From NCBI RefSeq assembly GCF_000527095.1, contig NZ_AZUN01000001.1:934772-998771 (forward strand): a stretch of DNA of 64,000 bases. Reading direction: 5' to 3'. Numbering within the stretch: position 1 is the stretch's first letter; each line of letters starts with the position of its first letter. The notes under the pieces are model-generated. The model had not been told where the DNA came from and ran no database searches. It saw only the letters and a list, made by a program, of their open reading frames with translations. A program made the translations under genes and the position numbers. This document shows, piece after piece, positions 5,180 through 61,810 of this stretch. Source of the DNA: Methylomicrobium lacus LW14. GTDB taxonomy: Bacteria; Pseudomonadota; Gammaproteobacteria; Methylococcales; Methylomonadaceae.

Positions 5180-5239
5180 AAACTGCTGAACGGATTGCGC
5201 TATGAAATTTTTCGTGCTTTTCGTGTTTTTCGTGGACCA

Positions 5240-7786: not shown

Positions 7787-8716
7787 ATGAGAATAGTCGT
7801 TGCGTTGGGTGGAAATGCGCTACTGCGCCGAGGCGAAGCGCTGACATCAGAAAATCAGCGCCGCAATATTCAAATTGCCGCCGCCGCGTTGGCGCCATTG
7901 GCTAGCGATCATCAGATCATCATCACGCACGGCAATGGCCCTCAGGTCGGGCTGTTGGCATTGCAAAGCGCGGCCTATAAGTCTGACGAAAGCTATCCCT
8001 TGGATATTCTCGACGCCGAAACCGAAGGCATGATCGGTTATCTGATCGAGCAGGAATTGGGTAATTATTTGCCGCCAGAACGGCTCTGTGCAACCTTGCT
8101 AACGCAAATCGAAGTGGACCCGCACGATCCGGCTTTTGATTCACCCACCAAGCCGATCGGCCCCGTTTACTCCAAAACCGTCGCGGAACAACTCGCTAAT
8201 CAACACCGCTGGCGCATCGCGAAGGATGGCGAATATTATCGGCGCGTGGTGCCGTCGCCCAGGCCGCGAAGGATCGTAGAGATCGAGGTGATTAAGTCAC
8301 TGATCATACGTAATGTGGTGGTGATTTGTGCGGGAGGCGGCGGCATTCCGGTTGTGAAAGACGTAGATGGCCACTGGCGCGGCGTTGAAGCGGTGATCGA
8401 CAAGGATCTGGCCGGGGCTCTGCTGGCGATCGAGTTAGGCGCCGACCATTTCATGATGCTGACCGATGTCGATGCGGTGTACCAGAATTGGGGAATGCCA
8501 GAAGCCCGCGCGGTTCGCTGCATATCGCCCGGAGCGATTCGGGAAATGGCCTTTGCCGAAGGCTCGATGGCTCCGAAAATGCTGGCCGCTTGCGAATTTG
8601 TCGAGAAAACCGGCCGCATTGCCGGCATCGGACAGCTCAAGGATGTGGCCGATATTCTCGCGGGAACCGCCGGCACGACGATCGCGCCGGATGCGGATAT
8701 CGGCTGGTGGGATTGA
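7787..8716 (+). CDS. arcC: Carbamate kinase
   Basis: MRIVVALGGNALL at the N-terminus, an amino-acid kinase fold, and C-terminal GTxI motifs. The long ORF starts at 7595 but the homologous start is 7787. Confidence 0.85.
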   Translation: MRIVVALGGNALLRRGEALTSENQRRNIQIAAAALAPLASDHQIIITHGNGPQVGLLALQSAAYKSDESYPLDILDAETEGMIGYLIEQELGNYLPPERLCATLLTQIEVDPHDPAFDSPTKPIGPVYSKTVAEQLANQHRWRIAKDGEYYRRVVPSPRPRRIVEIEVIKSLIIRNVVVICAGGGGIPVVKDVDGHWRGVEAVIDKDLAGALLAIELGADHFMMLTDVDAVYQNWGMPEARAVRCISPGAIREMAFAEGSMAPKMLAACEFVEKTGRIAGIGQLKDVADILAGTAGTTIAPDADIGWWD

Positions 8717-8737
8717 TCAGAGGGTTTCCTTGCGCGT

Positions 8738-10087
8738 TCAATCCGAAAGCAAATTCTGCTCTTGCAGAAATGCTTCCACCAGCCCGCTCAACAACGGCTT
8801 GCCGATTTCGGCGAATTCGTAACTCGCGCGCACGACCGGCTTGTTGATCTCTATCAGTGCGCCAAGGTCGCACGGCGTCGCGGTCACGACCACATCGGCC
8901 TCGGCCGAATTGATCGTCTCTTGCAAGGCGCGGAGTTGTGCCGGATGATAGCCGACAGCCGGCAGCACCTTGCCGATATGCGGATAGTGGCGGTAAACTT
9001 CGGCGATCTCGCCTGCCGCAAAATCGCGCGGATCGACAATCTCCGCCGCCTCGGCTTCCAATGCTGCAACATAGCCCGCGCCATAGGCCATGTCGCCATG
9101 TGTGACGGTCGGGCCGTCCTCGACCACGAGCACGCGTTTGCCGCGCACCCGCTCGGGATCGGACAGTTGCACGATGGATGCGCCGCGCACGACCTGTGCG
9201 CAGGGATTCGTTTGCCGCACGCTGTCTTCCACGCGCTGCACATCGGCTGGCGCGGCCGAATTGACCTTGCCGATCAGGACGATGTCGGCCATCCTAAGAA
9301 CCGTCTCGCCCGGATGATGCGAGGTTTCGTGGCCCGGCCGCAACGGATCGACCAATACGATGTTCAGATCGGGACGGATGAACGAAAAATCGTTGTTGCC
9401 GCCGTCCCAGACAATGATGTCGGCTTCCCGTTCGGCGCGCGCGACGATCTTGGCATAATCGATGCCTGCAAACACCACATTGCCGATCGCCAGATGCGGT
9501 TCGTATTCCTCGCGTTCCTCGACCGTGCAGCCGGCCGCATCCAGATCGGCGTTCGCAGCGAAACGCTGCACGGCCTGTTTTTCCAGATCGCCGTAAGGCA
9601 TCGGATGCCGGATCACCGCGACTTTCAGGCCGTGCGCCTTCAACAGTTTGGACAGCCAGCGCGCCGTTTGCGATTTGCCGCAGCCGGTGCGCACAGCGCA
9701 GCAGGCGATCACCGGTACGGAAGCCTGGAGCATCGTTCGCTTCGGACCCAGCAGGATGAAATCGGCGCCTTGGGCGAGTGCGATCGAAGCCGTGTGCATC
9801 ACCCGGCTATGCGGCACGTCGCTGTACGAGAAAATGGCCTGGTCGATACACTGCGTTTGGCACAAGGCGGCGAGCTCCGCTTCGTCGACGATAGGGATGC
9901 CCTCGGGATAAAGCTGTCCTGCCAGTGAGGCCGGATAGCGGCGGCCCGCGATGTCCGGAATCTGCGCGGCGGTGAAGGCGACGACTTCGCTGTCCTGATC
10001 GTCCCGATACACGACATTGAAATTATGAAAATCGCGCCCGGCGGCGCCCATGATCACGACTTTGGTGCGTTGTTTCGTAACGGACAT
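8738..10087 (-). CDS. P-loop protein resembling cyclic 2,3-diphosphoglycerate synthetase / predicted GTPase family
   Basis: A 449-aa ORF with an N-terminal Rossmann-like KVVIMGAAGRDFHNFN and a central P-loop GCGKSQ. The family assignment is from memory only. Confidence 0.35.
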   Translation of the reverse strand: MSVTKQRTKVVIMGAAGRDFHNFNVVYRDDQDSEVVAFTAAQIPDIAGRRYPASLAGQLYPEGIPIVDEAELAALCQTQCIDQAIFSYSDVPHSRVMHTASIALAQGADFILLGPKRTMLQASVPVIACCAVRTGCGKSQTARWLSKLLKAHGLKVAVIRHPMPYGDLEKQAVQRFAANADLDAAGCTVEEREEYEPHLAIGNVVFAGIDYAKIVARAEREADIIVWDGGNNDFSFIRPDLNIVLVDPLRPGHETSHHPGETVLRMADIVLIGKVNSAAPADVQRVEDSVRQTNPCAQVVRGASIVQLSDPERVRGKRVLVVEDGPTVTHGDMAYGAGYVAALEAEAAEIVDPRDFAAGEIAEVYRHYPHIGKVLPAVGYHPAQLRALQETINSAEADVVVTATPCDLGALIEINKPVVRASYEFAEIGKPLLSGLVEAFLQEQNLLSD

Positions 10088-10284
10088 AGAAAGTTCATCC
10101 TGACAGGGTGATCAGAGAATCCAGTATGGCAAAGCGTTCTTCTTATTATAATGACGGATAGTTCAGGCAAAAATTTATTTACGAGCGCTATTTTTATTGG
10201 GGATGTCCCTATTTGCACAATCCGTTGTCAGATTATTCGAAGGCTGCCAATCAGCCTAAAGTCGATAGGGTAAATGGAGTGGGT

Positions 10285-10674
10285 ATGAAAGCAGCAATCA
10301 AGCGGTTCGATCCGAGCCAAGAGTTCTATACCGCCGAAAAATGCTTCATCATCGAAGTGTCCAATGCGCCGGATGATCCAGAGGTGTCGATAGCGAGGGC
10401 GCGCGTGGCGCCCGGAGTGACGACGCACTGGCACCGCGTCAAAGAGACCGCGGAGCGCTATGTGATTCTTGAAGGCAAGGGCCTTGTCGAGGTCGGCAGT
10501 CTTGCGCCTCAGGATGTCGGGCCCGGCGATGTCGTGCTGATTCCGCCGTCATATCGCCAGCGGATCACCAACATCGGGCCGGGCGATTTAATCTTTCTCG
10601 CCATTTGTAGCCCGCGCTTCAGGAACGAAGCTTACGAAGATATCGACGAGGATCAGGATTTTTTGCGGGTGTGA
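10285..10674 (+). CDS. Cupin-domain protein
   Basis: Contains a cupin beta-barrel motif (GVTTHWHRVKETAERYVILEGKG...GDVVLIPPSYRQRI). A GGAG ribosome-binding site lies before ATG 10285. Confidence 0.6.
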   Translation: MKAAIKRFDPSQEFYTAEKCFIIEVSNAPDDPEVSIARARVAPGVTTHWHRVKETAERYVILEGKGLVEVGSLAPQDVGPGDVVLIPPSYRQRITNIGPGDLIFLAICSPRFRNEAYEDIDEDQDFLRV

Positions 10675-11201
10675 CTATAAAGGTTGTTGAAGAGCCGGAT
10701 GACAACCGAAATCAGCGTCTGGGCTGTCTTGATTGCCGGCACCCGAACCGGGTTTTCCGAAGCGAAATCATCGATCGCGGCGTTCACAAAATTGACCAGC
10801 CCCATTTGCCCGGTTTCATCGAGCGAACGCTGCCGCAGGCGATCTTGAAGTTTTTCCTTGATCTTCTCGTCCATGAATTTATCCGCAAGCAACGATTGTA
10901 GCTCAGCATCCAGCAGCATCGCTTGCTTTTCAAGAAAGTCGAAGTCCAGGTCTTTGTGCGAGGGCAGGGGGCCGAAGGCCTTCCGATAGATGCAAATCAC
11001 GTCGAAGCAAAGGTCCATGAACAGATGCGACATGTCCTGGTTTTGCTCGGCGATGATGGCCGGAAAAATGCCGAAGAGGGTTTGCGCCAAAGCGGTTTGA
11101 TCAAGCTGGAATTGCTCAATAATCTTCCGGCCGGCGTTCTCGTCGAGGCTTCTGGCATATTCAATTGCCTGATATAGCTCGCGGTCTGTAAGTTCGTGCA
11201 T
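10653..11201 (-). CDS. Hypothetical protein (182 aa)
   Basis: ORF only. It is convergent with the cupin gene, overlapping it by 22 nt. No family recognised. Confidence 0.4.
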   Translation of the reverse strand: MHELTDRELYQAIEYARSLDENAGRKIIEQFQLDQTALAQTLFGIFPAIIAEQNQDMSHLFMDLCFDVICIYRKAFGPLPSHKDLDFDFLEKQAMLLDAELQSLLADKFMDEKIKEKLQDRLRQRSLDETGQMGLVNFVNAAIDDFASENPVRVPAIKTAQTLISVVIRLFNNLYSHTRKKS

Positions 11202-47945: not shown

Positions 47946-50081
47946 TCACTCACGCCCATCCTCTGACGCCCCGGCATGGGCTTGACAATCCGCCAGGGAT
48001 TTAGCCGTGGGCTTGCTGCCTTTGATCACCTGCGTAAACACCTTCTGGCCTGACAAACCGTGCGGGTCGGTCACCTTCAGTGTCACGGTGTAAGTTCCCG
48101 GCGCGCAGTAAGCGTGTTCATGGTTCTTTTCGGCCGAGGTGGAACCATCGCCAAAGTCCCACACATAAGACGGCGCATCGCCATCCACGTCGCCGCTGCC
48201 TTCGCTCGAAAACAGGATGGAGAACTTGGATTTCTTCGCTACTTTGCTGCCTGACGCCCAGGCTACCGGAGCGTCATTTACGCCACGGGTATCCAAACCC
48301 AACCAGTAAGCATCGCCAACCTGATGCGTCTTGCAAGCGGCGGATTTCTTTGTTGTCGGCTTGCCTGCAATCGTATGCGTCAGTATGCTTTGTCCCGTCA
48401 GGCCGGTCGTATTCGTCACGAACAATCTGACCCGGTAAGCGCCTGGAGAGCAATAAACATGCTCATGGGTCTTTTGATTCGAGGAAAAACCATCGCCAAA
48501 ATCCCAAAGGTAGGTTAAGGCTGCGTTAGCGGGATCCACCGTGCCGTCGCTTGAGAAACTTAATGTATATTTCGATTTGCCCTTTTGCTTTGACACGGAA
48601 GCCTTGGCCATCGGCGGCGGCACCGCGACATTGCCGGTAAAGAAATATTGGCCGAGACTGCCGTAATCGGAATAGGCGGTCACAAAATTGCCTACCCCTT
48701 CAACGGCTAACAGATAGTGGCCCGGCTGAAGCGATGTGGTGATCGTGGCATCGGTGTCGGTTTGGGAATCACTTTCGGCTAGTTTATTGCCGTTCCAATC
48801 ATACAAGGCAAGCTTGATATCCAGATTGGTTCCGCGCCGATCCGGCGAATAAAACGCTTCCCATGCGGGCGTTGCGATCAGGTTGATCGAGCCGGCCGCA
48901 TCCAACATGAAGTAATCCACATCGTCGCGGGTTCCGATAATGCCCTTGTTATAAGGTATTGTATTATTCGGGTCGGTTTCCGGGTTGGTGGACTGAATGC
49001 TGCCGTCTAAAGCGATAACCAAAGGCGTAATGCCGTCGTGGTCATCAGGGCGATAGCCGAGTTTTTCGGCGATGATGGCCGTGTCGTCCTGGGTTTGCGT
49101 GGCGCCTGGGTAGTCGCCGTTATTCCATTCGGTGACGCTTTTGTTATAGCCCGATCCCATGATGGGCGCCCAGGAAGACGCTCCCCAGCCACTGCCGGCA
49201 TAATAGTCCAGCTGGGAGCCGCCATTCGAGTAACCGTCATGCGCAAGCCCTAAATTGTGTCCCATTTCATGCGAAGCGATCAGCGCGATATTCGTAGGAT
49301 CCAGACCCGTAGCGTTGTAATACACGAATGCGGGCGAATAATAGCTGGCATAATCGCGATTCCCCCAGACATCAAGACTAGACGCGCCGGAAGCTTGCTG
49401 GTATGCCGGCATAGCGACGCCATTACTATCGACGTCGCTCGTAATCAGAATGGTTCCCGTCGTCGGGCCGAACACAGCCGGCTCTTCGGTGGTCACGTCA
49501 ACAGCGAACGGCGCGAAGTCTTCGGCAACTTGGTGCCAAACTTCGGCGATCTGGAGTAATTCCGCCGTACTAAAATGCGCATTGTCGTTATCGGAAGTGA
49601 ACTCCTTGGCCTTTAACACCGTGTTTTTAGGGTAATCGCTATTCCAGGTCGTGCCGACAATATCGCGCCCGTTGAAATCCAGGTAAATCACGTTCTTTGA
49701 GCCAGGCAAGCTATGCAAAGCAAAGACATCAGGCTCGGTCATGGCGATGTTTGCCGATGATGCAGCGCTCGGCCGAGCAACTGCGGAGGTAGTATCCGGC
49801 GCTTCGAATAGATCAGCGTAAAACACATCCCCCTGATCGTTAACGCGAAGATGCGCTAAATCAATTTCGGTAAAGGAGATGTTGTCAAGGTTTCCCAACA
49901 CCCGGTCTCTAACATGATCAGGAAGTCCCGACAGCCTATCCCGAAACCGCCCTGCGGGAAGATCATGAAGCTGGAAATGCGATCCGCGCTTGAAATGCTT
50001 AATCGGCCAGGATTCAGCGGCCAATGGGGTAACGAGAATGGCACCCAAGATGGCAAATAAGGCTGCTTTTTTGCTGTCCAT
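47946..50081 (-). CDS. Secreted zinc metalloprotease (reprolysin/M12B-like HExxHxxGxxHD) with two C-terminal PKD domains
   Basis: A signal peptide, the zinc site HEMGHNLGLAHDGY, and two PKD repeats (WDFGDGS...HEHAYCAPGTYTVTLKVTD and WDFGDGF...HEHVYCSPGAYRVRLFVTN). Confidence 0.7.
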   Translation of the reverse strand: MDSKKAALFAILGAILVTPLAAESWPIKHFKRGSHFQLHDLPAGRFRDRLSGLPDHVRDRVLGNLDNISFTEIDLAHLRVNDQGDVFYADLFEAPDTTSAVARPSAASSANIAMTEPDVFALHSLPGSKNVIYLDFNGRDIVGTTWNSDYPKNTVLKAKEFTSDNDNAHFSTAELLQIAEVWHQVAEDFAPFAVDVTTEEPAVFGPTTGTILITSDVDSNGVAMPAYQQASGASSLDVWGNRDYASYYSPAFVYYNATGLDPTNIALIASHEMGHNLGLAHDGYSNGGSQLDYYAGSGWGASSWAPIMGSGYNKSVTEWNNGDYPGATQTQDDTAIIAEKLGYRPDDHDGITPLVIALDGSIQSTNPETDPNNTIPYNKGIIGTRDDVDYFMLDAAGSINLIATPAWEAFYSPDRRGTNLDIKLALYDWNGNKLAESDSQTDTDATITTSLQPGHYLLAVEGVGNFVTAYSDYGSLGQYFFTGNVAVPPPMAKASVSKQKGKSKYTLSFSSDGTVDPANAALTYLWDFGDGFSSNQKTHEHVYCSPGAYRVRLFVTNTTGLTGQSILTHTIAGKPTTKKSAACKTHQVGDAYWLGLDTRGVNDAPVAWASGSKVAKKSKFSILFSSEGSGDVDGDAPSYVWDFGDGSTSAEKNHEHAYCAPGTYTVTLKVTDPHGLSGQKVFTQVIKGSKPTAKSLADCQAHAGASEDGRE

Positions 50082-50255: not shown

Positions 50256-51542
50256 TTAGTCTTCTGTTGAAAGCCCGATCAGCAAGCGGATAAATTGCAT
50301 CACATTTTCATTGAATACATCGTTGTGGCCGTCGATGATCTCCTCATCGACCCGGATATTCAGATAAGGATTTTGTGGGGTGGTTTTGTTCAGATGCGTC
50401 AGCACGGTGGAGCCGTATTGCGTGGAACCGCCCGGCGTTTGCGTGCTCCAGATGTTTTTCATGTTGGCATAGCTCGCGACCCGCATGTTCTTTTCCTTGT
50501 CCAAAGGCTTCAAGGTGTGGCTGATCAACGGCAGATAATGACCTACCGTATTGCGGTCGGCTTCGCCTTCATCCAGTGCGAGCGGATGTTTGCAGTCGTT
50601 GCGTTCGATATCGTGATGGGTTTCGAAAAAAGTCGAGAACACGCGGCCCAACGGAAACAGGGTACCGGTGGCGCTGTCGGCTTCCGAAGTCAAAATCGCC
50701 AAACGCGGCACTTGTTCCGGAAAGTAACTGCAACGCGACTGGGCCAGATCATAAAAGGGCGCATAACGCAGCGCTTCGAACGCCGGGTTCAGCAGAACGA
50801 CCAGATCGCCGAAGCCTTTGGCGGTATCGGTAAAGCCTTTGCCTTCCTGGCTGTCGACGAAGCGGCTGGCCAAAATTTGCGAGGTCGCGCTGTACACGAC
50901 CGCGCCGCCGAAGCTGTGGCCGATCACGACCAGGCGGCTTTTGATCGGAGGAATCATCGAATTGCGCACATTCGCGATTTCCTCCAGCTTGACCAAGAGT
51001 TCGCTGACGCCGAGATAGCCGACATCCTGCGCGGTGCTTTTACGGTCCCAGAAGGTCAGATAATTGAACGGCGGTACGTCGAGCGATTCGCCGCGCCAGC
51101 CCACATAGACGCCGACAATTTTGCGGGCAGGGCGCTTCAGTTGCTTGCTGCGCCGGCTTTCGATCGCGCTGAGTTTGGCGAGATTGTCCTTGAAACTTTC
51201 GATATTCGGATCGCCGGGGCGGGCGTTGTGATGCCAGCCGTGCACGAAGACGTTCAACAAAACGCTTTCTTCGGCGGCTTTTTTGTAGAGGGTATCGAGT
51301 AGGGCCTGCATCTGTTTGCGGTCGCGCATCTGGCCCTGATCGTCGATTTCGACGAAGCCCAGCGTGTATTCATTGTCCTTTCCCGTATTGTAAAGATGCA
51401 GCGAGTTTTGCTCGCACGCATTGCCTGGTGAAACGCTACACGGCTCATAAATGCTCCGGTATATCTCATTCGATGCGCAGCCGGTCAGTAAGGCACTTGC
51501 GCACAGCAAGGCCTGCAACGGCATCATTTTTATCAGACTCAT
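50256..51542 (-). CDS. Lipoprotein alpha/beta hydrolase-like (paralogue-like of 30111..31412)
   Basis: A lipobox LLTGCAS, VFVHGWHHN, and the nucleophile elbow VIGHSFGG. Start chosen at ATG 51542 (GGAG 7 nt upstream); the maximal ORF extends to 51797. Confidence 0.5.
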   Translation of the reverse strand: MSLIKMMPLQALLCASALLTGCASNEIYRSIYEPCSVSPGNACEQNSLHLYNTGKDNEYTLGFVEIDDQGQMRDRKQMQALLDTLYKKAAEESVLLNVFVHGWHHNARPGDPNIESFKDNLAKLSAIESRRSKQLKRPARKIVGVYVGWRGESLDVPPFNYLTFWDRKSTAQDVGYLGVSELLVKLEEIANVRNSMIPPIKSRLVVIGHSFGGAVVYSATSQILASRFVDSQEGKGFTDTAKGFGDLVVLLNPAFEALRYAPFYDLAQSRCSYFPEQVPRLAILTSEADSATGTLFPLGRVFSTFFETHHDIERNDCKHPLALDEGEADRNTVGHYLPLISHTLKPLDKEKNMRVASYANMKNIWSTQTPGGSTQYGSTVLTHLNKTTPQNPYLNIRVDEEIIDGHNDVFNENVMQFIRLLIGLSTED

Positions 51543-51680
51543 GAGCATCTCCGGGGAATTAGAAAAGGACTTTTGCGAAGCAAAGAGTCTAACAGCCGTA
51601 ATTATCTCGGTCAATATGCGTTCAGCATCGTCTTGACCGCATCGGCCAGCAAGCCTAAATGTAGCGGCCCGATAACATAA

Positions 51681-52512
51681 ATCACAGGACCCGATTACAT
51701 CCGTTTTTCGGGACCACTTTAGCTGATAATATCCGTGCGCTCTGGCCCACATTAAATGAGAATGAGCCCTGATTAATTGAGAACAGCCCGATAACATCGG
51801 CCAGGAACCACATTAACCGAGAACGGCTACCGCTTTGCTGCTAATGTGTTATGCCTTACAGTAATACGCCGGCAGCCAGCAATTGATCGTGGAGTTCTTG
51901 GGTTCGTTCAGGCGGTAATTGACCGCTCAGGAACGAGCGGATTTCCTTGGGTTTGGCGGTGAGTATGTCGGTCAACAACCTGACGTTGTAACCGTTACGC
52001 GTCAGACGTGCTTCCAACCCATCCAGGTCAGGCGCCAAAATATCTTGAATGGTATCGGCGTCGACCGGTTTTTGTCCGACTCGGAAGGCCTCCTCAATCA
52101 CAGGACCCGATTACATCCGTTTTTCGGGACCACTTTAGCTGATAATATCCGTGCGCTCTGGCCCACATTAAATGAGAATGAGCCCTGATTAATTGAGAAC
52201 AGCCCGATAACATCGGCCAGGAACCACATTAACCGAGAACGGCTACCGCTTTGCTGCTAATGTGTTATGCCTTACAGTAATACGCCGGCAGCCAGCAATT
52301 GATCGTGGAGTTCTTGGGTTCGTTCAGGCGGTAATTGACCGCTCAGGAACGAGCGGATTTCCTTGGGTTTGGCGGTGAGTATGTCGGTCAACAACCTGAC
52401 GTTGTAACCGTTACGCGTCAGACGTGCTTCCAACCCATCCAGGTCAGGCGCCAAAATATCTTGAATGGTATCGGCGTCGACCGGTTTTTGTCCGACTCGG
52501 AAGGCCTCCTCG
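51681..52512. repeat. Tandem duplication, 2 x 416 bp (transposon left-end repeat + 3' 240 bp of tniB)
   Basis: 51681-52096 is repeated at 52097-52512. This creates a second copy of the terminal repeat (52076-52256) and a tniB 3' fragment (ORF 51856..52101). Confidence 0.85.
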
Positions 52513-53297
52513 AAAGCGCGCGTCAAATAAAGCTCAAACTGTAACGGTGTCGTCAATTTCTCGCAGAGTAATGTCACGGCAGCATCGGTGATTAAAGTAT
52601 CCAGCTGGGTTTCTGCTGCCGTGACTTGATCGAGCAACCAGTACACGTACTTTTTCTTGTCGTGCCCGAAGCTGTTCAGTTCGAAAAACGTCGTTCGTGC
52701 GCCAATTTCTTCCATTGACGGGCGCAGCAAGTCGTTCTTGAGCTTTGGGTGCCCGGCCAACACCACGGACAGGGTCCCTTTGCCGCTCCGCACGATTTCC
52801 ATCAAGCGTTTTAGGGCAATCAGGGTCTTGCTCGGCAGCTGGTGAGCGTCATCAATGAACAAGGCGACCGGTTTTTTCCTTTTGCGAATCAACTCGCGCA
52901 ACGCCCGTTCTCGGAGCCCAACCGACTTAGGCAGGGGGTCATCCTTATCGATGGCCAGATCGCTGAATAATGTCTGTACCAGCGTTGCGGGTGTGACTTG
53001 GCTAACATCCAAAGCTAAGGAATTGGCAGTCAAGATGGCTTTATCTTGTTCCAGTAAGTCCTGGATTTTTTGCAGCATCGCCGTCTTACCGGTACCGACC
53101 ATGCCGGCCAGTACGATGAGCTTGCTGTCCTTGATGGCCAGCTTGAGTTCGGTGACGACTTGTTGTAATTGGGTCGTTTCGAAATAGGCGACCTGGCTAA
53201 GCGAACTCATTTCCCGGATGAGGCCATAGTGGTTTCTAATGTCACTCAGCATGAGGCGGGTTCTCCGATACATGTTCGACAGGTTCGATACAGGCAC
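52272..53297 (-). CDS. TniB/ExeA-like AAA+ ATPase (transposition helper); start uncertain (53297/53252/53210)
   Basis: Walker A (GMVGTGKTAML), Walker B (VALFIDDAHQL), and ExeA/TniB-like overall layout. Confidence 0.75.
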   Translation of the reverse strand: MPVSNLSNMYRRTRLMLSDIRNHYGLIREMSSLSQVAYFETTQLQQVVTELKLAIKDSKLIVLAGMVGTGKTAMLQKIQDLLEQDKAILTANSLALDVSQVTPATLVQTLFSDLAIDKDDPLPKSVGLRERALRELIRKRKKPVALFIDDAHQLPSKTLIALKRLMEIVRSGKGTLSVVLAGHPKLKNDLLRPSMEEIGARTTFFELNSFGHDKKKYVYWLLDQVTAAETQLDTLITDAAVTLLCEKLTTPLQFELYLTRAFEEAFRVGQKPVDADTIQDILAPDLDGLEARLTRNGYNVRLLTDILTAKPKEIRSFLSGQLPPERTQELHDQLLAAGVLL

Positions 53298-55118
53298 GGA
53301 CCCGTGCCAGCACTTCCCGCTTGTTCAGCGTGGACTGAACAAGCGCATTGATCCGAGCGAGCTGATCGGCAGACAATTTCGCCAGTGGCAGCCCCAAAAA
53401 TTCCGAAATGGCGCGTTTCGCCGCCAGTATGCTCGGGTAAGCCAACTGGTTGAATGGATCGGGATCGGCAAACGCTTGCGCGGGTAAGCCGTCGGGCCGA
53501 ATGAATGCCGCGACGTCGGGCCGATTTTCCAGGGCGGCACGCGGCAATTCGAGTTGAGCGGCCAATGTCTCGATGCGATCCGCACGCGTCTGCGTGGCTG
53601 ATTTCTTGAAAGCGCGGTAGCGATTCAAGGGGATGGGACCGCCGACCGGCAAGTAAGGACCGAAGCGTTTTTCACCGTGCTCGACAAACAATTCCTGGTC
53701 GAACAGCCCCCACCACAGCACCACCTCCTCACCGGCTAGGTCAGCATCGACCTCATACGGTATGCCGTCCACCGTGACGCGCGCATCGATCGCCACCTTG
53801 CGCCGTTCCGGTTCGCGGGCAAAGGTGCAAAAACGTTCCCAACTGCACATCGCCCGAATGCCGCCGGCGGGCAGGTTCTGCAACCAATCTTCGGCACGCG
53901 AATGCGGCTCAGAGCGATGATCCATTGCGTTGTAGCGAACCAGGAAGTTCTGTAACCAGGCATTCGCTTCCATTTCATCGCGCGGTTTCTGGAAGTGATA
54001 CAAGGTTTCATGGAGCTCTTTCACGGTGCGGAATGGGCGCTCGACTTTGCCCTTGGAACGGGCCGTGGTACGACGGCCGTCCTTGCCGGCCGGCAGGTGG
54101 GTGCGCAACTTGATGCCAAGGTAACGCATCACGCGCTGAAATACCTGGCTACGTGCCACAGGTCCGTTATCAGTGTATATCATCAGCGGGATACCTTGTA
54201 ACGGAGCGTCAGGCGAGGATTTCGCGGCCATGGCGTTGAATAGAAAACGTAAGGCGGTGACGACATCCTCGCCGTAGACGCAGTGGTACTCCTGGTAAGC
54301 CACCCCGCTGCGATCATCGACGACGGAAAACAGCATCAGGGTGGGCGCCTTCATATCCGGACGAATCCATGACGGAGCCTCGACTTCCTTGATATCATCA
54401 GCGGGATACCTTGTAACGGAGCGTCAGGCGAGGATTTCGCGGCCATGGCGTTGAATAGAAAACGTAAGGCGGTGACGACATCCTCGCCGTAGACGCAGTG
54501 GTACTCCTGGTAAGCCACCCCGCTGCGATCATCGACGACGGAAAACAGCATCAGGGTGGGCGCCTTCATATCCGGACGAATCCATGACGGAGCCTCGACT
54601 TCCTTGAGGTCCGATGGCGAAAGGTCGAATTGCCAGCAATCGTTGCTGTGCTCCGCCTGGAAGCGCACCGCAGGCGGTGGTCGCCCTAGGGTCGTGCGGT
54701 CGTAACCCCATTGTTTGAGATAGCGATTCACCGTGGTCTTGTTGAGTGTGCCGGCAGCGGCTTGAACATGGCCAGCGGGGGTATCGATCCCGAACGTCTC
54801 GATCAGCCGGATCGATTCGGCGGTCGAAAGGTGTCTGCTTTTCTTGTTTGATGTTCGCACTTTTATCGCGGCGATCAATTCGCAGTAGTGCTCTAACTGC
54901 TCTGCAGGCAGTACGCGCGGCACTCCCCGATCAGCGCGGCGCAAAGCCTTTGGCCGGCATCGCTCGGCCAGCGCCCCGTACAAGGTGGGCTCAGAAACAC
55001 CAAACGTCTGCGCGGTTTCCGCCACGACCAGGCGGCGTTCGTGACTGCGAGTCGGCAGTAATGCCAGCCGCCGTGCCAGATCGATCAAGGTCTCAGAGGG
55101 AATGATCTTTCTAGTCAC
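53242..55118 (-). pseudogene. TniA/Mu-like DDE transposase (rve integrase core + Mu transposase C-terminal domain) split by a 215-bp tandem duplication
   Basis: ORFs 54351..55118 (N-terminal HTH plus DDE core with WQFDLSP) and 53242..54354 (C-terminal domain) share the duplicated peptide MKAPTLMLFSVVDDRSGVAYQEYHCVYGEDVV...GIPLMI. The 215-bp duplication is not a multiple of 3, so it frameshifts the gene. Confidence 0.75.
54179..54608. repeat. Tandem duplication, 2 x 215 bp inside tniA
   Basis: atcatcagcgggataccttgtaacgg...gagcctcgacttccttga occurs at 54179 and again at 54394. Confidence 0.85.
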
Positions 55119-55133
55119 AGCACAATCTCGACG

Positions 55134-55727
55134 CTACCGAACCGCTCTCGATACGCCGAGGGGTACGCCGCGATGGCGCAGATAGGCGTATAAAGTGCTC
55201 TTGGAAATATGCAGATGCTCGGCAATTTGCTGGGCGCTGAGCTTGCCTTCACGGTACAGTGTTTCGGCGGCGCAAGCGGTGGATAGGGCTTTCTGCGGCA
55301 AGCCTTTCGGGCGTCCGCCGATGCGTCCACGTGCGCGGGCGGCGGAAAGACCGGCTTGCGTGCGCTCGCGAATCACATCGCGTTCAAATTCGGCCAAGGA
55401 AGCGAAAAGATTAAACACCAGACGTCCTTGCGGCGTTGTGGTGTCGATTGGATCATTGAGGCTCTTGATGCCGACATCCCGCTGTAACAGCAGATTGACG
55501 GTCTCAACCAGATGCTTGAGCGAACGCCCCAGACGATCCAGTTTCCAAACCACCACGATGTCACCCGGTCGCACCTCTTCGAGTAGCTTGGCCAATATCG
55601 GCCGCTCGGTCGCCGCGCCGCTGATGACTTCCGTGTAAACCTTGGCGCAGCCCACCTCCTTTAGCGCATCGACCTGAAGCGCTACGGTCTGATCGCGGGT
55701 GCTGACGCGGGCGTAACCAATATTCAT
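55134..55727 (-). CDS. Serine recombinase (resolvase/invertase, TniR/BinL-like)
   Basis: MNIGYARVSTRDQ carries the catalytic Ser. A resolvase N-terminal domain is followed by a C-terminal HTH (LSAQQIAEHLHISKSTLYAYL). Confidence 0.9.
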   Translation of the reverse strand: MNIGYARVSTRDQTVALQVDALKEVGCAKVYTEVISGAATERPILAKLLEEVRPGDIVVVWKLDRLGRSLKHLVETVNLLLQRDVGIKSLNDPIDTTTPQGRLVFNLFASLAEFERDVIRERTQAGLSAARARGRIGGRPKGLPQKALSTACAAETLYREGKLSAQQIAEHLHISKSTLYAYLRHRGVPLGVSRAVR

Positions 55728-55737
55728 GGGAATCTTT

Positions 55738-55806
55738 TGTCGTATGCGTATCGTCCATTATACTCATCACCCAAAAGTAAATGATCGTTTTGTCGAACGC
55801 TGACAG
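55738..55806. promoter_or_regulatory. Candidate res-like recombination site upstream of the resolvase gene
   Basis: TGTCGTATGCGTATCGTCCA at 55738-55757 and the inverted half-sites TGTCGAACGCTGACA at 55791-55805 resemble TGTC...GACA resolvase binding half-sites. Confidence 0.25.
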
Positions 55807-55809
55807 TAG

Positions 55810-58800
55810 CTAATTAGTCAAGTCGAGCAAGATTTGCAGGTCTTTGCCATTAATCCGTTCATCCCGATACAGGTCCGCATCCGGATTGAATTTCGGGTCG
55901 CCGACTTTACTGCCCAGGGCATTTTTTAACAACGCGATGTCAAGATCATCAACCAGGCTATCGCCATTGAGATCCCCGCGTATTTTAGGCGGAACGAATC
56001 CTTCAAACTCGCTGGCCTTGTAAGCATAAGTCGTGGCTAGATCGAAGCTGACCAAGTTGCTGCCGCTGGGGCCAGCTATCAATAAATCTTTTACGAAGTA
56101 AGGACCGTCTTGACCATTAGTACCGATTCTGCTGCCGTCAAAGACAAAGCTTATCTGGGCATCGCCGGCACTTAAATCCAGTTGATGCGTATAAAAACCG
56201 ATTTCCGTACCTGTTGAATCGACTAAGCGGGCGCTCCAAACGTAGGTGCCGCTCGTTTTCAGTTTTACCCCTACCTCAACTTGTAGTTGGTTGAACAAGC
56301 CGTCTCCATCGGTGTCGACCCCTCGATTGCTCGAAGAGCCCGTCAGCACGATGGCTGGAACAGTCGCTTGATTGGGGTCAAACTCGGTATACGAATAGCT
56401 TTTAGTCTCTTGCGGAAGCTGAAGCCTGTCAATTACTTTGTGAGTTTCAGGATCCTTAAGGACAACTTCCGCCCGGTATGGGCCGTCAATTTGACGTTTG
56501 AAAATATAAGCTCCGTCAAAATCAAAACTCAATTGCCGAATCCCAGGTGTTACCGTGATTGATTGTGAAATACTTGATGTATGGTAGGTTCCCGAGGTGC
56601 TCGTCAGTTCGAGCTGACTTTCCAACAGATAAGTCGCTGCTTGGGAAAAACTGGCATCAACGGTGACATTAAGGAGGTCGAACAGCCCATTGCCATTGTT
56701 ATCAACCCCTTTATCGGCAACGGAACCGTCCACCAGTTCAAACACGGAGGCGAAGTTTTGAAACTGATAAGGCTGGGTGACAAATTTGAAACCTACCGCA
56801 TAGCGATTGCCTTCGCCGCTGCTTTCTTCAAGCGACAACCCTCCATCATATGGTCCATTCAGGCCGGACCGACGCAACGGTAAACCGGGAAACACAAAAC
56901 TATACTGCGTCTGCCCGGCCGTAAGCATGACATCGTCGGCATAAGCGTTACTTATTGAGGGCTTGCCATCTTTATACAAAGACCCTGCAAAACGGTAATT
57001 ACCACTTGCGCGAACAATGAGATCCATCGTCACACGGAGACCCTCTAACATCCCATCACCATTCTCATCTACCCCCTCATCGTGCGCTCCGGTAATGTAT
57101 GCGAGAAGCTCTCCGAAAGTTTGATGATCATAATTTGGCGTTTGCAGACTTTTTGTGTTCGTTTCGCCTAAGACTGAGAGATTGAGGTCGTAGGGACCGT
57201 CTTGACCGGAACGGAAGATTTCTTCACCCGAGAACATCAGCGTTACCGTTTGCTTTCCGGATTCGGCTATCAAGGTTTTCGTGCAGTCAGCTGAAGAATG
57301 ATACTGGCCGCTGGTAATTAACTGGCCGTTTTTCCTTAATTCGCACCCTATGGTATAGGAACCCGCCTGGGTAATCTCGACATCGACATCGACAGCAAGG
57401 GCCTCATAGATGCCGTCGTTTTCAGTATCTATCAGGCGATAATTTGCGGTATCCGGGAATTGGAGCCCGCCTACGGTTGCCTCTGCATTCGCGATTAGTG
57501 CAGAAGTGGAGAGGGGAGCCGGTGGCAACAAATAACTATAATTATCCCAATCAGCTCCTGGAGATGCCGGTGCTTGGCCTGGCAATTGATAAATTTTCGC
57601 GCCTTCAACGGTAACCAAGTAAGGCCCGTTGGCATCCGCCAGCGTCTCTCCGGTTTGGTTAAAAGCAACAAACTCATTCTTTGTAGAATAAATCTTGTTG
57701 AAGGTAGCGTCATAGAAATTATTGTTATATCGGCGTAAGCTGTGATCTAAGAATCTATATCGGTCATAAACGGTACCTTCGAATGCTTTAGCATTCCCCC
57801 TGAAGAGAGGGTCGATTGATTGCTGCCCCAGAACTGTTAAAAAGCCTTTTTCTAGCGAGCCTCTTTGTATTTCCCTGTACATTCCGTCCACCCCCAGTGT
57901 TTTCGACATTGCGCTAAATACATCGCTGAACAGGTAGCAATCGGCCTGCGTGCAGGTGATCGGATCATTGACCATTCCGCTCCAGTCACGGCATTGAGGA
58001 TACGTTGAGTACTGCCAGTTGGCTCCGCCAAAGCTATAAACGCCCTGAAGTACCGCAGCATGTATCGCGGCCTCGTCCGATTTTCCGGCAGCCCACGCGG
58101 TCGCTTTTTCGTACCAGGCACGGCGAGGCGGATTAACGTTATCATTTGGGCTGGCTTTGGTCGCAAACAGTTTTCGACTGGCACCGAGGGTTTCCTGATG
58201 ATTATTTTTATTGTCATTTACTGTATAAGTGAAATTCACCAGATAACTGCCTATTTTATCCGGCACAGCCACTGGAAAATCACCCTCAAAACCTGACCAT
58301 GTCTTGGAGTCACTGCCACCCCCGCTAATGGTCCATTCGACTGATACTTCGGGCGGGTCGATGCTGTTCTCGGGGCAAGTCTTGATTTTAGCTTTCAAAT
58401 TGGGGCTGCCACCCCCGGTAAAACCCGAGAAAGGATATTCGTCGATGGCTTCTGTCGTAGTTGTCACGGTGCATGTTTGATCAAACTCTTGCTCATAAAT
58501 AACATCAATCGTTTCCTCGCCGGTATTTTGTCGAACTTTATTACCACCTTCGCCGACCGACATCTTAAGAGCCAATTTTGGGCGGATAGGGATGTGCATC
58601 GCCACCCAGTCGATGGCTGTACACCAGCTTCCGCTACTTAACGTATCGACATTGATTTGAATTTTGTTGGTAACTGGCGTTACGCTAGAGCCATTACCCG
58701 GCCGCTGAGGAAATTTCACTTTTCGAATGTCGATAGTGAAATCATTTAGTTTCCAAATATTATTATCTCCTGTCAGAAAACCTACACTTTCACCGTTGAA

Positions 58801-59259
58801 CAGTACTTCGTCTTTTTCCGCTGGCGGACCGCCAGTAACATCGACATCATAAGCAGGCATCTTAACTGCGACTTTCGCAGGAATGATACCAGCAGTAATA
58901 AACGCTGACGGGTCGATCAAATAGCCGTCAGCATCGACATCGCCGACAAATTTGTCGATAACGACTTCAATAACTAAAGGATGACCTGCGTCTGTATTAA
59001 AGGTACATCCCGTATCCAGTCCATTGCCATTGTCGGCAATGAAAACATCGCTTGTTGGCGGATCAAAAGGGGAAGTTCGATTGGCCGTGGCAGCCGAAAG
59101 TGCTGTACTGGGCGCGGGGCTGTCGCTTCGAACGTCTCTCGTTTCTTGCGCCTCGCATATTGAAAAAGTTGGTAATACCAGCACGATGGATGCAACCAGC
59201 AGCCATATCTTTATCACGTACTGTTTCAGGGTAGACGAGGAGTTTCTACACATTTTCAT
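55810..59259 (-). CDS. Large secreted protein (1149 aa) with C-terminal dockerin-like calcium-binding repeat pair; transposon cargo
   Basis: A signal peptide, then a long beta-rich region of unknown function. The C-terminus GDLNGDSLVDDLDIALLKNAL...DLYRDERINGKDLQILLD matches the duplicated dockerin type I segment pattern. GC is lower than the flanking DNA. Confidence 0.6.
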   Translation of the reverse strand: MKMCRNSSSTLKQYVIKIWLLVASIVLVLPTFSICEAQETRDVRSDSPAPSTALSAATANRTSPFDPPTSDVFIADNGNGLDTGCTFNTDAGHPLVIEVVIDKFVGDVDADGYLIDPSAFITAGIIPAKVAVKMPAYDVDVTGGPPAEKDEVLFNGESVGFLTGDNNIWKLNDFTIDIRKVKFPQRPGNGSSVTPVTNKIQINVDTLSSGSWCTAIDWVAMHIPIRPKLALKMSVGEGGNKVRQNTGEETIDVIYEQEFDQTCTVTTTTEAIDEYPFSGFTGGGSPNLKAKIKTCPENSIDPPEVSVEWTISGGGSDSKTWSGFEGDFPVAVPDKIGSYLVNFTYTVNDNKNNHQETLGASRKLFATKASPNDNVNPPRRAWYEKATAWAAGKSDEAAIHAAVLQGVYSFGGANWQYSTYPQCRDWSGMVNDPITCTQADCYLFSDVFSAMSKTLGVDGMYREIQRGSLEKGFLTVLGQQSIDPLFRGNAKAFEGTVYDRYRFLDHSLRRYNNNFYDATFNKIYSTKNEFVAFNQTGETLADANGPYLVTVEGAKIYQLPGQAPASPGADWDNYSYLLPPAPLSTSALIANAEATVGGLQFPDTANYRLIDTENDGIYEALAVDVDVEITQAGSYTIGCELRKNGQLITSGQYHSSADCTKTLIAESGKQTVTLMFSGEEIFRSGQDGPYDLNLSVLGETNTKSLQTPNYDHQTFGELLAYITGAHDEGVDENGDGMLEGLRVTMDLIVRASGNYRFAGSLYKDGKPSISNAYADDVMLTAGQTQYSFVFPGLPLRRSGLNGPYDGGLSLEESSGEGNRYAVGFKFVTQPYQFQNFASVFELVDGSVADKGVDNNGNGLFDLLNVTVDASFSQAATYLLESQLELTSTSGTYHTSSISQSITVTPGIRQLSFDFDGAYIFKRQIDGPYRAEVVLKDPETHKVIDRLQLPQETKSYSYTEFDPNQATVPAIVLTGSSSNRGVDTDGDGLFNQLQVEVGVKLKTSGTYVWSARLVDSTGTEIGFYTHQLDLSAGDAQISFVFDGSRIGTNGQDGPYFVKDLLIAGPSGSNLVSFDLATTYAYKASEFEGFVPPKIRGDLNGDSLVDDLDIALLKNALGSKVGDPKFNPDADLYRDERINGKDLQILLDLTN

Positions 59260-59708
59260 GCAATGCGCCTGTAAAATGAAGGGGAAAGTATTGTCAATTT
59301 TTGGGGTTTGAGGCGCAATGGAATGGAAAATTTAGCTAGCTTATTAGCTGATGCGCTTTTGCGATAACATAAGAGAGTGGCGGAAATTTGTCAAACGGCG
59401 TTGAAAACTTTCTGGCGCGGTAGGGCGGGTAGAGCGGAGCGTTCTTCAAATTTTCGAAGAGTATGGAAACCTACCGCAAAGTTTTGAACGAAGAGGCTAC
59501 GATTGTAATGTCTACCAACAGCGATCTTTTCGAATTGCTCAAGCGGATCGAACAGAAAAGGTCATAGTAATGGATCTGTAAAGCCAAGGGTGCGCTGCGC
59601 GCACCCTTGGCTTGGCGATCAGCAGCAAATCTCCGCCTTGAAACCCGCCGCGCCGCCCGGCACCGCCAAGCTCAACGGCCTCGATCCTTCGGCCTGATTA
59701 AAAGCCCC

Positions 59709-59963
59709 CTAGAGCATTTTCATATAGGGTAAAGGTGCAATGCTGTTAAGTTAAGCCGTCATCTCGGCAGGGATTGCCGAGATCCACGACTGCACGGACG
59801 CAGGAGGTAGGGCAAGGCAGGAGCAATTGCCGAGAGTACATGGAAGTATTAAAGCCTGCCATCCTTGGCAGTTTAATTCCGGCACTCCCTGCCGGAATGA
59901 CGAACCCTGGCTTAACTTAGCGGCATTATTCAAGACCGTACATCCGAAACGAAAATGCTCTAG
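59709..59963. repeat. Nested inverted-repeat element (possible MITE or structured ncRNA) in the transposon's non-coding right arm
   Basis: Outer perfect 13-bp inverted repeat ctagagcattttc (59709-59721) / gaaaatgctctag (59951-59963). Inner 16-bp imperfect inverted repeat at 59743-59757 / 59908-59923. Internal perfect hairpins: atctcggca-gggat-tgccgagat, ctgcca-tcct-tggcag and ccggca-ctccc-tgccgg. Confidence 0.4.
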
Positions 59964-60358
59964 AAAAACTGCCTGCCTGACCTAACAGCCGCATCGACGA
60001 ATTACCGCCCTTTCGTTGCTCGGATTAAATCATAGCCTTGGCAGCCTGACTATGTGAAAGGGCTGGGCGCTTACACTCAGTCATTTCTTTCTATACATCC
60101 TATACACCGATTGCCCGCTTGGGGTCGGGTATAGTCAATCGTTTGACAGCATGAGACGGGTTGGTACGCATTATTTGCACTATGTTCATTCTCAGTTAAT
60201 CTGGTTCCTAACCGATGTTATCGGGCTGTTCTCAATGAATCTGGGCTCATTCTCGTTTAATGTGGGCCGGAGCGCATGGATATTATCAGCTAAAGTGGTC
60301 CCGAAAAACGGATGTAATCGGGTCCTGTGATTTATGTTATCGGGCCGCTACAGTTAGC

Positions 60359-61810
60359 CTATCTCATCGAAATGGCTATCGACTGAATGCAATCGATTAG
60401 GTGTCCGGGAAGAATGCCGAACCAGACCAGCAGCAGGCTTAAGGCGGCGAGTGTTACGGTAGACAGCCATTTGCGGGATTTTTTGGGGGGTTCAGACATC
60501 ACCTCTTCACTATTCATCGACATCGCGACAATGATCCTAACGTAGTAGTAGAGCCCAAGGCCGCTGCCGATGATGACACTAGCCAGCAAGACCCACAGTC
60601 GGGCATCGGCGCCGCTGGTGAAAACATAGAATTTACCGATAAATCCGGCGGTCAGGGGAATGCCTGCCAGCGATAACAACATCAGCGTAAACGTTCCGGC
60701 CAACCACGGACGCCGCCAAAACAGACCGCGCAAGATTGCGACATCACCGGCCTCTTGTTGCGGCGTGGACAGCACCGAAACGACTCCGAAGGCACCGATC
60801 GTGGTAATGAAATAGGCAACCAGATAAAAAGCGGCCGATTCGACAACTAGTGGCCTCGCAATGCTTGCGCCGGCAATCAAGGCTACCAAGAGATAGCCCA
60901 TGTGGGCGATCGACGAATAGGCTAACAAGCGCTTGATATTCTTTTGCAGCAATGCCAGCATATTGCCGACCAAAATAGACAGCATCGCGATGAAACTGAA
61001 CACGGTCAGCAAAGGAACGTAACGGTAGCTGCCGGTGGTCACCAATAAACGTAAGAGCAGAACGAAAACAGCACCCTTCGAGACGGTCGCGATAAACGCA
61101 GTCACCGGCGCCGGAGCGCCTTCGTAGACATCCGGTGTCCACAAATGAAACGGGGCCAACGATAGCTTGAAACCGAGCCCTGCCGCGATCAGAATAACGC
61201 CGCTCAGAATCACGGAATTTAGGGGAAGGTGGGCATCGATGAAGCCTTCAATGCCGATGAAATCAAGCTCGCCGCTTTCGGCATAGAGCAAGGCAATGCC
61301 CATTAGCAGAAAGGCCGAAGACACGCCGGACAATACCAGGTATTTGATTGCCGCCTCGAGCGGGCGAGTCCGATTGACCGGATAGCCGATCAGCGTGAAC
61401 AGTGAAATACTCAGTATTTCAAGACCTAAAAACAAGGCGGCGAAATGACTGCTGGCGGCCAGCACCGACCCGCCTAAGAGCGCGGTTAACAATAGCAACG
61501 GAAGTTCTTCGTTTTCTGCATCGTATTGCTTGAAATAATCATGGCACAGGCCCAGCACCGCGAGGCCTGCCAGTAACAACAAGGCGACAAAGAACAACGC
61601 GTAATGGTCTATGTTCAGCAATGGAATCGCCTGGATCGAAGATTTATGCCAGGCAGGGCCAATCAAGAGCAGGGACAACACGATGCCAAAGCCGGCGATA
61701 CCGTTGACCAGCGCGAAATTCCGTCTGACCGCGATCACGAGCATGAGGGTGATGGCCGTGACGATCATCGCAATGAAAGGTGCAAGAACGATTAGCGAAT
61801 CAAGGTCCAT
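60359..61810 (-). CDS. nuoN: NADH-quinone oxidoreductase subunit N
   Basis: A 483-aa polytopic membrane protein with NuoN/ND2-like helices. It is the last gene of the nuoLMN run, and its stop lies 6 bp from the transposon terminus. Confidence 0.85.
   Translation of the reverse strand: MDLDSLIVLAPFIAMIVTAITLMLVIAVRRNFALVNGIAGFGIVLSLLLIGPAWHKSSIQAIPLLNIDHYALFFVALLLLAGLAVLGLCHDYFKQYDAENEELPLLLLTALLGGSVLAASSHFAALFLGLEILSISLFTLIGYPVNRTRPLEAAIKYLVLSGVSSAFLLMGIALLYAESGELDFIGIEGFIDAHLPLNSVILSGVILIAAGLGFKLSLAPFHLWTPDVYEGAPAPVTAFIATVSKGAVFVLLLRLLVTTGSYRYVPLLTVFSFIAMLSILVGNMLALLQKNIKRLLAYSSIAHMGYLLVALIAGASIARPLVVESAAFYLVAYFITTIGAFGVVSVLSTPQQEAGDVAILRGLFWRRPWLAGTFTLMLLSLAGIPLTAGFIGKFYVFTSGADARLWVLLASVIIGSGLGLYYYVRIIVAMSMNSEEVMSEPPKKSRKWLSTVTLAALSLLLVWFGILPGHLIDCIQSIAISMR

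Follow-up and report, generated by a model that had tools for sequence, protein, structure and literature searches.

Several bacterial transposons, Tn7, Tn5090, Tn5053 and Tn552 among them, have been grouped together by the subterminal arrays of transposase sites that they carry, and in reviews replicative transposition is linked to the loss of TnsA together with the acquisition of a resolvase (PMC8649781, PMC11406308). Tn552, the beta-lactamase transposon of Staphylococcus aureus, as read here from plasmid pMW2 (from which p480 was also rebuilt), carries blaR1, blaI, binL (197 amino acids), p480 and p271 on one strand. The present analysis concerns an 8-kb element located directly after nuoN in Methylomicrobium, within a 64-kb stretch of DNA that is referred to throughout as the window. 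The element is of the Tn552 type, its closest known element being Tn552 and not Tn5053, and it belongs to a widespread and under-described family. It is very probably a replicative transposon built like Tn552, resident in Methylomicrobium lacus or a near-identical strain.

Gene order and kinship with Tn552

Two terminal inverted repeats of 165 nt, the left at 51660-51824 (plus strand, ATPase-proximal) and the right at 60188-60352 (minus strand, cargo-proximal), are identical at 155 of 165 positions (93.9%), in agreement with an earlier note on this DNA that had described repeats of about 165 bp bracketing a set of genes. On the minus strand, reading from the right end, there follow a 930-nt spacer, an open reading frame (ORF) of 1149 codons, a serine resolvase gene (197 residues, 55134-55727), a DDE transposase gene (53242-55118) and the gene of an AAA+ helper ATPase of the p271/MuB/TnsC type (326 residues, 52272-53252), which overlaps the 3' end of the transposase gene. 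Profile hidden Markov model searches with Pfam (Resolvase, E 1.9e-46; AAA_22, 5.9e-16; a weak rve match, 7.8e-4; Dockerin_1, 3e-8) uphold the view, also first put forward in that note, of a discrete transposon with multi-site ends, a Mu-like DDE transposase, an AAA+ ATPase, a serine resolvase and a dockerin-bearing cargo protein.

The arrangement is that of Tn552: cargo, the resolution site (res), a serine resolvase of 197 residues in both elements, the DDE transposase and the ATPase succeed one another on a single strand. Like Tn552, the element has neither TniQ nor TnsA; no ORF between its ends has a TniQ match, nor does any in the relatives examined, and TnsA is absent from the element and from every one of those relatives. 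The ends of Tn552 are about 110-120 nt long, start TGTCAC... and contain ATGAGAA repeats, and those of the element are likewise long, TGT-tipped and internally repeated, so that long ends are not the peculiarity they had been taken for. Tn552-type elements duplicate 6-7 bp of target (7 bp, TAATTGT, in pMW2); relatives of the element show perfect 6-bp duplications, and this copy shows none. Differences are also evident. The transposase has 553 residues as against 480 and lacks a Pfam Mu-transpos_C match; the ends measure 165 nt as against about 115 and hold about seven sites; the target is strictly TA-centred; and, unlike the bla genes of Tn552, the cargo of the family is varied, its hosts being Proteobacteria and Cyanobacteria.

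Protein comparisons place the element closest to Tn552. With hhalign, a 16-sequence transposase family profile aligns to Tn552 p480 over 229 columns of the catalytic core (probability 98.1%, E 7.5e-14), as against 47% (E 2e-4) for TniA of Tn402 (R751), and the resolvase is 49% identical to BinL of Tn552. Pfam AAA_22 is the sole match of both the ATPase (5.9e-16) and p271 (3.9e-20), each of which is encoded directly after its transposase gene. The earlier note had given the genes a TniA/TniB label and matched them to the Tn5053/Tn552 family. Membership in Tn5053/Tn402, whose TniA, TniB, TniQ and TniR make up an element that hunts res sites, would account for the same three protein classes and their replicative logic, for the subterminal repeat arrays and TGT tips held in common, and for a resolvase that is 46% identical to Tn402 TniR; the ATPase also aligns to TniB, although weakly, over the Walker motifs and without significance (E 8.4e-4). 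Other comparisons argue otherwise, beginning with the far better match of the transposase to p480. The ATPase does not match Pfam TniB (PF05621) at E 0.01 or better, whereas authentic R751 TniB does so at 3.7e-78. There is no TniQ and no sign of res-site targeting; the resolvase gene comes first among the transposition genes rather than last, with all genes in one direction; and the 25-bp terminal repeats and 5-bp duplication of Tn5053/Tn402 contrast with 165-nt repeats and a 6-bp, TA-centred duplication. The Tn5053/Tn402 reading is thus largely refuted, and such membership is very improbable indeed.

The transposase and its structural relatives

The transposase gene of the window is interrupted by a tandem duplication (see below), and removal of one duplication copy restores a protein of 553 residues that can be aligned over its whole length with homologues of 550-553 residues at 65-95% identity. 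Its catalytic residues, D165, D245 and E288, are invariant in the 16-sequence family alignment. A match to a Mu-type transposase family in PHROGs (E 1.4e-35) and one of the ATPase to PHROG 296, "DNA transposition protein" (E 4.5e-16), are consistent with these assignments.

Most relatives are labelled as IS481-family transposases by the NCBI pipeline, which raises the question of whether the element might be an IS481-family insertion sequence accompanied by chance passenger genes. IS481 is indeed the best NCBIfam model for the transposase (E 2.4e-21), and the element shares with that family TGT-starting ends, a 6-bp duplication and a TA-centred target; Stibitz is said to have reported in 1998 a duplication consensus of NCTAGN for IS481, which the target of the element resembles. 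The score of 76.5 bits, however, falls well short of the cut-off of 224, and Tn552 p480 (103.8 bits) and Tn402 TniA (45.9 bits) also match the model below threshold, so that the label is best understood as a nearest-model effect that is generic to the group. IS481 elements are about 1 kb long, with one gene and short repeats, whereas here an ATPase and a resolvase are conserved with the transposase in one operon across phyla, the ends of 165 nt hold about seven sites, and the 553-residue protein is predicted to share with TnsB and MuA an additional beta-barrel and a helical region at the C-terminus. An IS481 insertion sequence with passengers is therefore an improbable description.

The AlphaFold2 model of the transposase (predicted local distance difference test, pLDDT, of 73) comprises helix-turn-helix domains, an RNase H core, a beta-barrel and C-terminal helices. 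The best solved structures that Foldseek matches to this model are TnsB of ShCAST (E 1e-14), IS21 IstA, Tn7 TnsB, retroviral integrases and MuA. Judged from the model, fold, domain order and C-terminal tail would be common to TnsB of Tn7 and of type V-K CRISPR-associated transposons (CAST), to MuA and to IstA, just as the pairing of a transposase with an AAA+ target-DNA ATPase is common to TnsC of Tn7 and CAST, MuB and IstB. A Tn7-like element (TnsB, TnsC) that had lost TnsA and TniQ would fit the top structural matches of the model, the TnsC-like AAA_22 ATPase, and the multi-site ends with TGT tips described for that group (PMC11406308; PMC8649781). Sequence identity to the proteins of Tn7, CAST, Mu and IS21 is, nevertheless, only 13-20%. 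Profile searches of the PDB with the family returned weak integrase matches for the transposase, with neither TnsB nor MuA found, and generic P-loop matches for the ATPase. There is a direct match to Tn552 p480; TnsA, TniQ and a CRISPR module are missing, and a resolvase is present instead. As a separate explanation a reduced Tn7-like element has little probability, and since Tn552 is itself part of this superfamily, the difference is mainly one of naming.

Two further comparisons may be added. Tn6049 of Cupriavidus metallidurans, a 3.5-kb transposon present in many copies per genome, encodes a transposase and a "gspA" ExeA-like ATPase (PMC2864759, PMC4739549). Compared by its published description only, it resembles the element in its ExeA/GspA-like AAA_22 ATPase beside the transposase and in its TGT tips, and it is unlike the element in its reported 12-bp repeats (TGTGCATAAGCA) and 4-bp direct repeats. 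The term "Tn552-like" has been used in passing for an island of Pseudomonas putida (PMC3894933).

Terminal repeats and target sites

Each terminal repeat starts with the tip TGTAGCGGCC, and the window has exactly two occurrences of the 21-mer TGTAGCGGCCCGATAACATAA, one per tip, where 0.01 would be expected by chance. About seven direct repeats, putatively of the transposase-binding type, are found in each end. The earlier note had counted at least six CC(C/A)GAT(A/T)ACAT-like motifs per end; this count needs correction, in that three are exact copies of CCCGATWACAT (offsets 8, 30 and 127), and four (offsets 51, 85, 106 and 145) are a different, related site, CCAC(A/T)TTAnnnGA(G/T)AA. Both kinds are direct repeats with a YYGAKAAY core in common.

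The exact tips were established from other members of the family. Four identical 5132-bp copies in Nostoc flagelliforme have the exact termini TGTAGCGAAC...GTTCGCTACA, which fixes the tips at TGT and ACA. A candidate 5-bp duplication in the window, AGCCT (51652-51656 and 60356-60360), which would place the ends 3 bases outside TGT, was rejected because the four Nostoc copies and six metagenome copies terminate exactly at TGT/ACA; the TTT is, in addition, retained as flank in a variant allele of the locus (contig L084; retrieved sequences are cited by such handles).

Metagenome stretches containing the terminal 19-mer (n=115) provided 93 unique flanks, and 91 of these have TA at positions -4/-3, compared with a background of 4%. 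At -5 the base most often seen is C and at -2 it is G; 17 of the 93 flanks contain CTAG. As read from these flanks, the family target is a TA-centred hexamer, NNTANN, with a 6-bp duplication. Perfect 6-bp duplications bound two complete metagenome copies, L118 (1880 bp, CATAGC) and L216 (10,311 bp, CCTAAC).

It might be supposed that the "ends" belong to a dispersed family of repeats that has nothing to do with the genes they enclose. Elements of 1.7-1.9 kb with the same ends and no transposition genes do exist (L137, L118), and contigs often break at the repeat, as L093 does at the terminal repeat. The short forms, however, carry cargo only, as non-autonomous derivatives usually do, and L118 has its perfect 6-bp duplication; the tip sequence is found at two places only in the window; and the same tips bracket the same three-gene module in Ralstonia, in the Salmonella plasmid pSLT, in Nostoc and in several metagenome contigs. 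This association of ends and genes across phyla refutes the dispersed-repeat explanation, to which practically no probability can be assigned.

Proposed transposition cycle

By analogy with Tn552, Mu and Tn7, the steps of a replicative cycle can be proposed for a transposon of the Tn552 type. The transposase, of the Mu/TnsB class of DDE enzymes, would bind the approximately seven direct repeats of each 165-nt end and cleave at the TGT/ACA tips, and the AAA+ ATPase, of the p271/MuB/TnsC type, would aid target capture. Strand transfer into an NNTANN hexamer should give rise to the 6-bp duplication. Since no TnsA-like nuclease is encoded, formation of a cointegrate would be expected, which the serine resolvase may then resolve at res, just upstream of its own gene. 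Cargo occupies the interval between the resolvase-side repeat and res, and in this copy it is a captured, secreted dockerin protein of 1149 residues.

Rearrangement and decay of the nuoN-linked copy

The copy in the window is nothing out of the ordinary: it is partly decayed, and the transposon family to which it belongs is widespread and poorly named. Two perfect tandem duplications, each of two copies, are found within it. The first, of 416 bp (51680-52511; 51680-52095 = 52096-52511), creates a second left repeat (52096-52239) that lacks the 20-nt tip, and its first copy includes a duplicated 3' fragment of the ATPase gene (51856-52095, the last 80 codons). The second, of 215 bp (54177-54606; 54177-54391 = 54392-54606), lies in the transposase gene, whose frame it shifts by +2 at a point between the first two catalytic aspartates, so that ORFs of 255 (54351-55118) and 370 (53242-54354) residues result. 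The window therefore does not encode four intact genes: four gene types do lie between the repeats, as the earlier note had it, but one of them is split. Neither duplication shows microhomology at its junctions, and no others occur elsewhere in the 64 kb. Three metagenome contigs (L085, L086 and L094), which encode an identical NuoN and are 99.9% identical in DNA sequence, carry the same locus with neither duplication and encode an intact 553-residue transposase. The duplications are either real recent events or artefacts of sequencing or assembly.

The res region is also altered. In four relatives (L002, L083, L001 and L084) about 190 nt upstream of the resolvase gene are conserved, and this region opens with a palindrome, GTTCGACAAAACGATCGTTTTGTCGAAC, that is shaped like the crossover site of a resolvase. 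The window has a truncated res region (55728-55809, minus strand) that, as in L085, retains the left arm only, GTTCGACAAAACGA (55785-55798), of this site-I-like palindrome; about 85 nt that the relatives have are absent, and ATTT marks the join. A promoter scan of the res region did not support a sigma-70 promoter.

A second allele of the locus, found in L084 (16030-19735), L087, L089 and L090, bears on how this state arose. It has the nuoN junction, right repeat, spacer and cargo gene in common with the window at 99.9% identity. After the cargo gene come a full res and the first 170 nt of the resolvase gene at only 93% identity, the change from 99.9% to 93% between the window and L084 falling exactly at the res palindrome; the BLAST break between the two alleles is at 55779-55782. 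In place of the transposition genes and left repeat there are remnants of Tn3-family tnpR/tnpA and 59 unrelated nt, and the left host flank then resumes exactly at 51659, at the former tip. In some contigs of this allele the cargo gene is frameshifted (1073 + 81 residues).

A history in two steps would best account for the flanks of the copy in the window. A cargo-bearing element may first have inserted at GCTAAC beside nuoN, and a second, 93%-related element at TTTAGG, after which recombination at or near res would have fused the two. Such a fusion would account for both the unequal flanks and the common outer junctions. The flanks in question are, on the left, CCTAAA (51654-51659; TTTAGG in nuoN orientation), which fits NNTANN and does not match the right flank, and, on the right, GTTAGC (60353-60358; GCTAAC in nuoN orientation), between the tip and the nuoN stop codon. 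Three features make it probable that the copy in the window is immobile and no longer autonomous: the right half of the crossover palindrome is missing from res, the flanks on the two sides do not form a duplication, and the 215-bp duplication puts the transposase gene out of frame.

Several points weigh against the interpretation of the element as a replicative, Tn552-like transposon. The transposase is below the Pfam thresholds for rve and Mu-transpos_C. Between the ATPase and p271 of Tn552, hhalign gives only 2% (E 0.025), at which homology is not demonstrable by sequence, and a single-sequence structure model of the ATPase (pLDDT 45) is too poor for fold comparison. A target duplication was sought at the window copy and none was found, GCTAAC facing TTTAGG. 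Four of the six distinct complete metagenome copies likewise have unequal flanks, all NNTANN-compatible, from which it follows that flanks are frequently shuffled or that the duplication rule is laxer than the two clean cases suggest. For every member of the family transposition, cointegrate formation and resolution are argued from analogy, and the two-step history, one of several paths of rearrangement that could be drawn, leaves the 85-nt loss from res unaccounted for.

Insertion site and host genes

The tip at 60352 is 6 nt from the stop codon (60359-60361) of nuoN, at the distance given in the earlier note. The nuoN gene (60359-61810, minus strand), last of the nuo operon, is an intact host gene co-oriented with all the genes of the element, so that read-through transcription into the element may be possible. 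Of the two things that the nuoN 3' region of relatives was to define, an empty site was found but a target duplication at the window copy was not. The empty site is in L099, a contig of a related strain from the same metagenome as the near-identical contigs above, which encodes a NuoN of 86% identity; here the nuoN stop codon is followed by about 107 transposon-free nt and then by the gene of the same 428-residue lipoprotein that adjoins the element in the window. The element has, therefore, inserted into the short interval between two genes. When metagenomes were scanned for the exact empty-site junction there was no match, and L099 was found by way of its NuoN homologue.

All NuoN relatives come from Methylococcales; a NuoN scan of genome contigs returned relatives of 50% identity or less. 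In one relative with an 83%-identical NuoN (L097), a different gene, for a GH63-like glycoside hydrolase, follows nuoN. There is no sign of a dedicated target at nuoN, and the end of the nuo operon, which had been thought a special insertion point, presented a plain TA-centred hexamer of the kind the element uses.

To the left of the element, and outside it, are the host genes for a predicted lipoprotein of 428 residues with the lipobox LLTGC (50256-51542, minus strand) and for a PKD-domain protein of 711 residues (47946-50081), so that the secreted cargo now adjoins other envelope or secreted proteins. For the host genome the consequence appears to be small: a single decayed copy has left the gene of a secreted dockerin protein where the nuo operon ends.

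Cargo and non-coding spacer

The cargo gene (55810-59259, minus strand) encodes a secreted protein of 1149 residues with a signal peptide, a core of roughly 1000 residues and a C-terminal type I dockerin (residues 1095-1144; Pfam Dockerin_1, E 3e-8). No Pfam family covers its first 1000 or so residues. The protein is 100% identical to a protein of Methylomicrobium lacus, and about 90 homologues of 35-55% identity occur in other gamma-proteobacteria, including other methanotrophs, Competibacteraceae, Parabeggiatoa, Hahella and marine genera such as Rheinheimera and Paraglaciecola. The C-terminal modules of these homologues vary (dockerin, PKD, DUF11), and Methylomonas HYX-M1 has its homologue on the chromosome, as an ordinary gene adjoining ureEFG.

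In other members cargo is always placed between one end and res (L002, pSLT, L216). It includes a PIN toxin-antitoxin pair (L002), carbonic anhydrase (pSLT), an RHS toxin (L216), TacA-TacT and IS630. With such cargo elsewhere, genes other than resistance genes are normal for the family, and the distinction that the earlier note had seen in a non-resistance cargo falls away.

Between the cargo gene and the right repeat lies a non-coding spacer (59260-60187). It contains a promoter-like site (59366-59394, minus strand); a plus-strand ORF of 35 codons, METYRKVLNEEATIVMSTNSDLFELLKRIEQKRS (59463-59570), which is also a gene call in the metagenome contigs; and, after it, a perfect 15-bp palindrome (59581-59613). 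A 255-nt nested-hairpin element resembling a miniature inverted-repeat transposable element (MITE) follows at 59709-59963, with terminal repeats CTAGAGCATTTTC...GAAAATGCTCTAG; neither in the rest of the window nor at the other loci retrieved was a further copy found. Contig L092 stops a few dozen bases from the centre of this MITE-like element, and its last ~115 nt are unmatched in the window. An Rfam search of the whole element gave no match.

Distribution and naming of the family

The combination of genes and ends, thought in the earlier note to be undescribed, has the architecture of Tn552 and is common. A plasmid collection contains 897 matching records, of which 624 reach at least 80% query coverage (the weakest being remnants or distant DDE genes), and related proteins form 1988 clusters at 50% identity. 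The resolvase-transposase-ATPase operon is conserved across phyla in Ralstonia, Methylomonas, Salmonella (pSLT) and Nostoc, and it is found further in Pseudomonas syringae, in Klebsiella, and on plasmids of Nostoc, Anabaena and Gloeothece. The names assigned by the Prokaryotic Genome Annotation Pipeline (PGAP), "IS481 family transposase", "ExeA or AAA family ATPase" and "recombinase", mask a Tn552-like, cargo-carrying transposon. The TGTAGCGGCC ends, the strict NNTANN target and the 6-bp duplication should permit elements and their cargo to be delimited automatically, as for the element beside spvR described below.

A more far-reaching proposal, which we regard as possible but doubtful, is that the family constitutes a large lineage not yet formally described, in which an IS481-like core, with TGT tips and a strict TA-centred 6-bp target, is combined with an ATPase of the Tn552/Tn7/Mu type, multi-site ends and a resolvase. 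If this were so, the lineage would represent an evolutionary bridge from one-gene insertion sequences to heteromeric transposons. Through it, hidden under the name "IS481 family transposase", cargo of very many kinds would be spread among Proteobacteria and Cyanobacteria, from surface proteins and RHS toxins to toxin-antitoxin pairs and, on the virulence plasmid of Salmonella, the segment beside spv.

The closest annotated relative is on a plasmid of Methylomonas sp. EFPC1 (L083), with a transposase of 91.5% identity. That element (about 2000-10830) has one recognisable tip within 17 kb; upstream of the tip are merR together with chrB and chrA, two genes for chromate resistance, and this stretch may be a large cargo region.

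The member on the Salmonella virulence plasmid, of 56.6% identity, is situated next to spvR. In L096 (Salmonella Typhimurium plasmid pSTY2-1898, of the pSLT type) it is 4.6 kb long (3168-7785), with ends TGTAGCGGCTCGCAATCG and a carbonic anhydrase gene, and its position is some 1.7 kb upstream of spvR, from which an IS630 separates it. The same element occurs on hundreds of virulence plasmids of Salmonella, where its genes bear the names recombinase, IS481 family transposase and ExeA family protein. The resolvase-like gene of pSLT is presumably rlgA, and a literature search on rlgA found no description of the pSLT element as a transposon.

The four Nostoc flagelliforme copies, on plasmids of strain CCNUN1 (L100-L103, 1824-6955), have perfect 200-nt inverted repeats, and each contains the same IS630 insertion as a passenger. 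The hexamer ACTACC flanks one copy on the left and another copy, on a different plasmid, on the right, which suggests that flanks have been exchanged, through cointegrates or recombination.

Among the metagenome members, L137 (6886-8611; also L141 and L157) is a non-autonomous mini-element of 1726 bp that carries only a TacA-TacT (GNAT) toxin-antitoxin pair, with unequal flanks, and L118 (412-2291), another non-autonomous mini-element of 1880 bp, encodes a protein of 350 residues with no Pfam match. The 10.3-kb member L216 (128-10438) carries an RHS-repeat toxin split in two ORFs and a DUF6869 protein. A form of 3949 bp that is free of cargo is represented by L150. In Ralstonia solanacearum (L001, 6734-11929) a 191-nt repeat pair bounds the element, an extra short end-like sequence (10619-10669) lies directly after the ATPase gene, and a GTP cyclohydrolase I gene is found between this sequence and the outer repeat; these nested ends recall the duplicated left end of the window.

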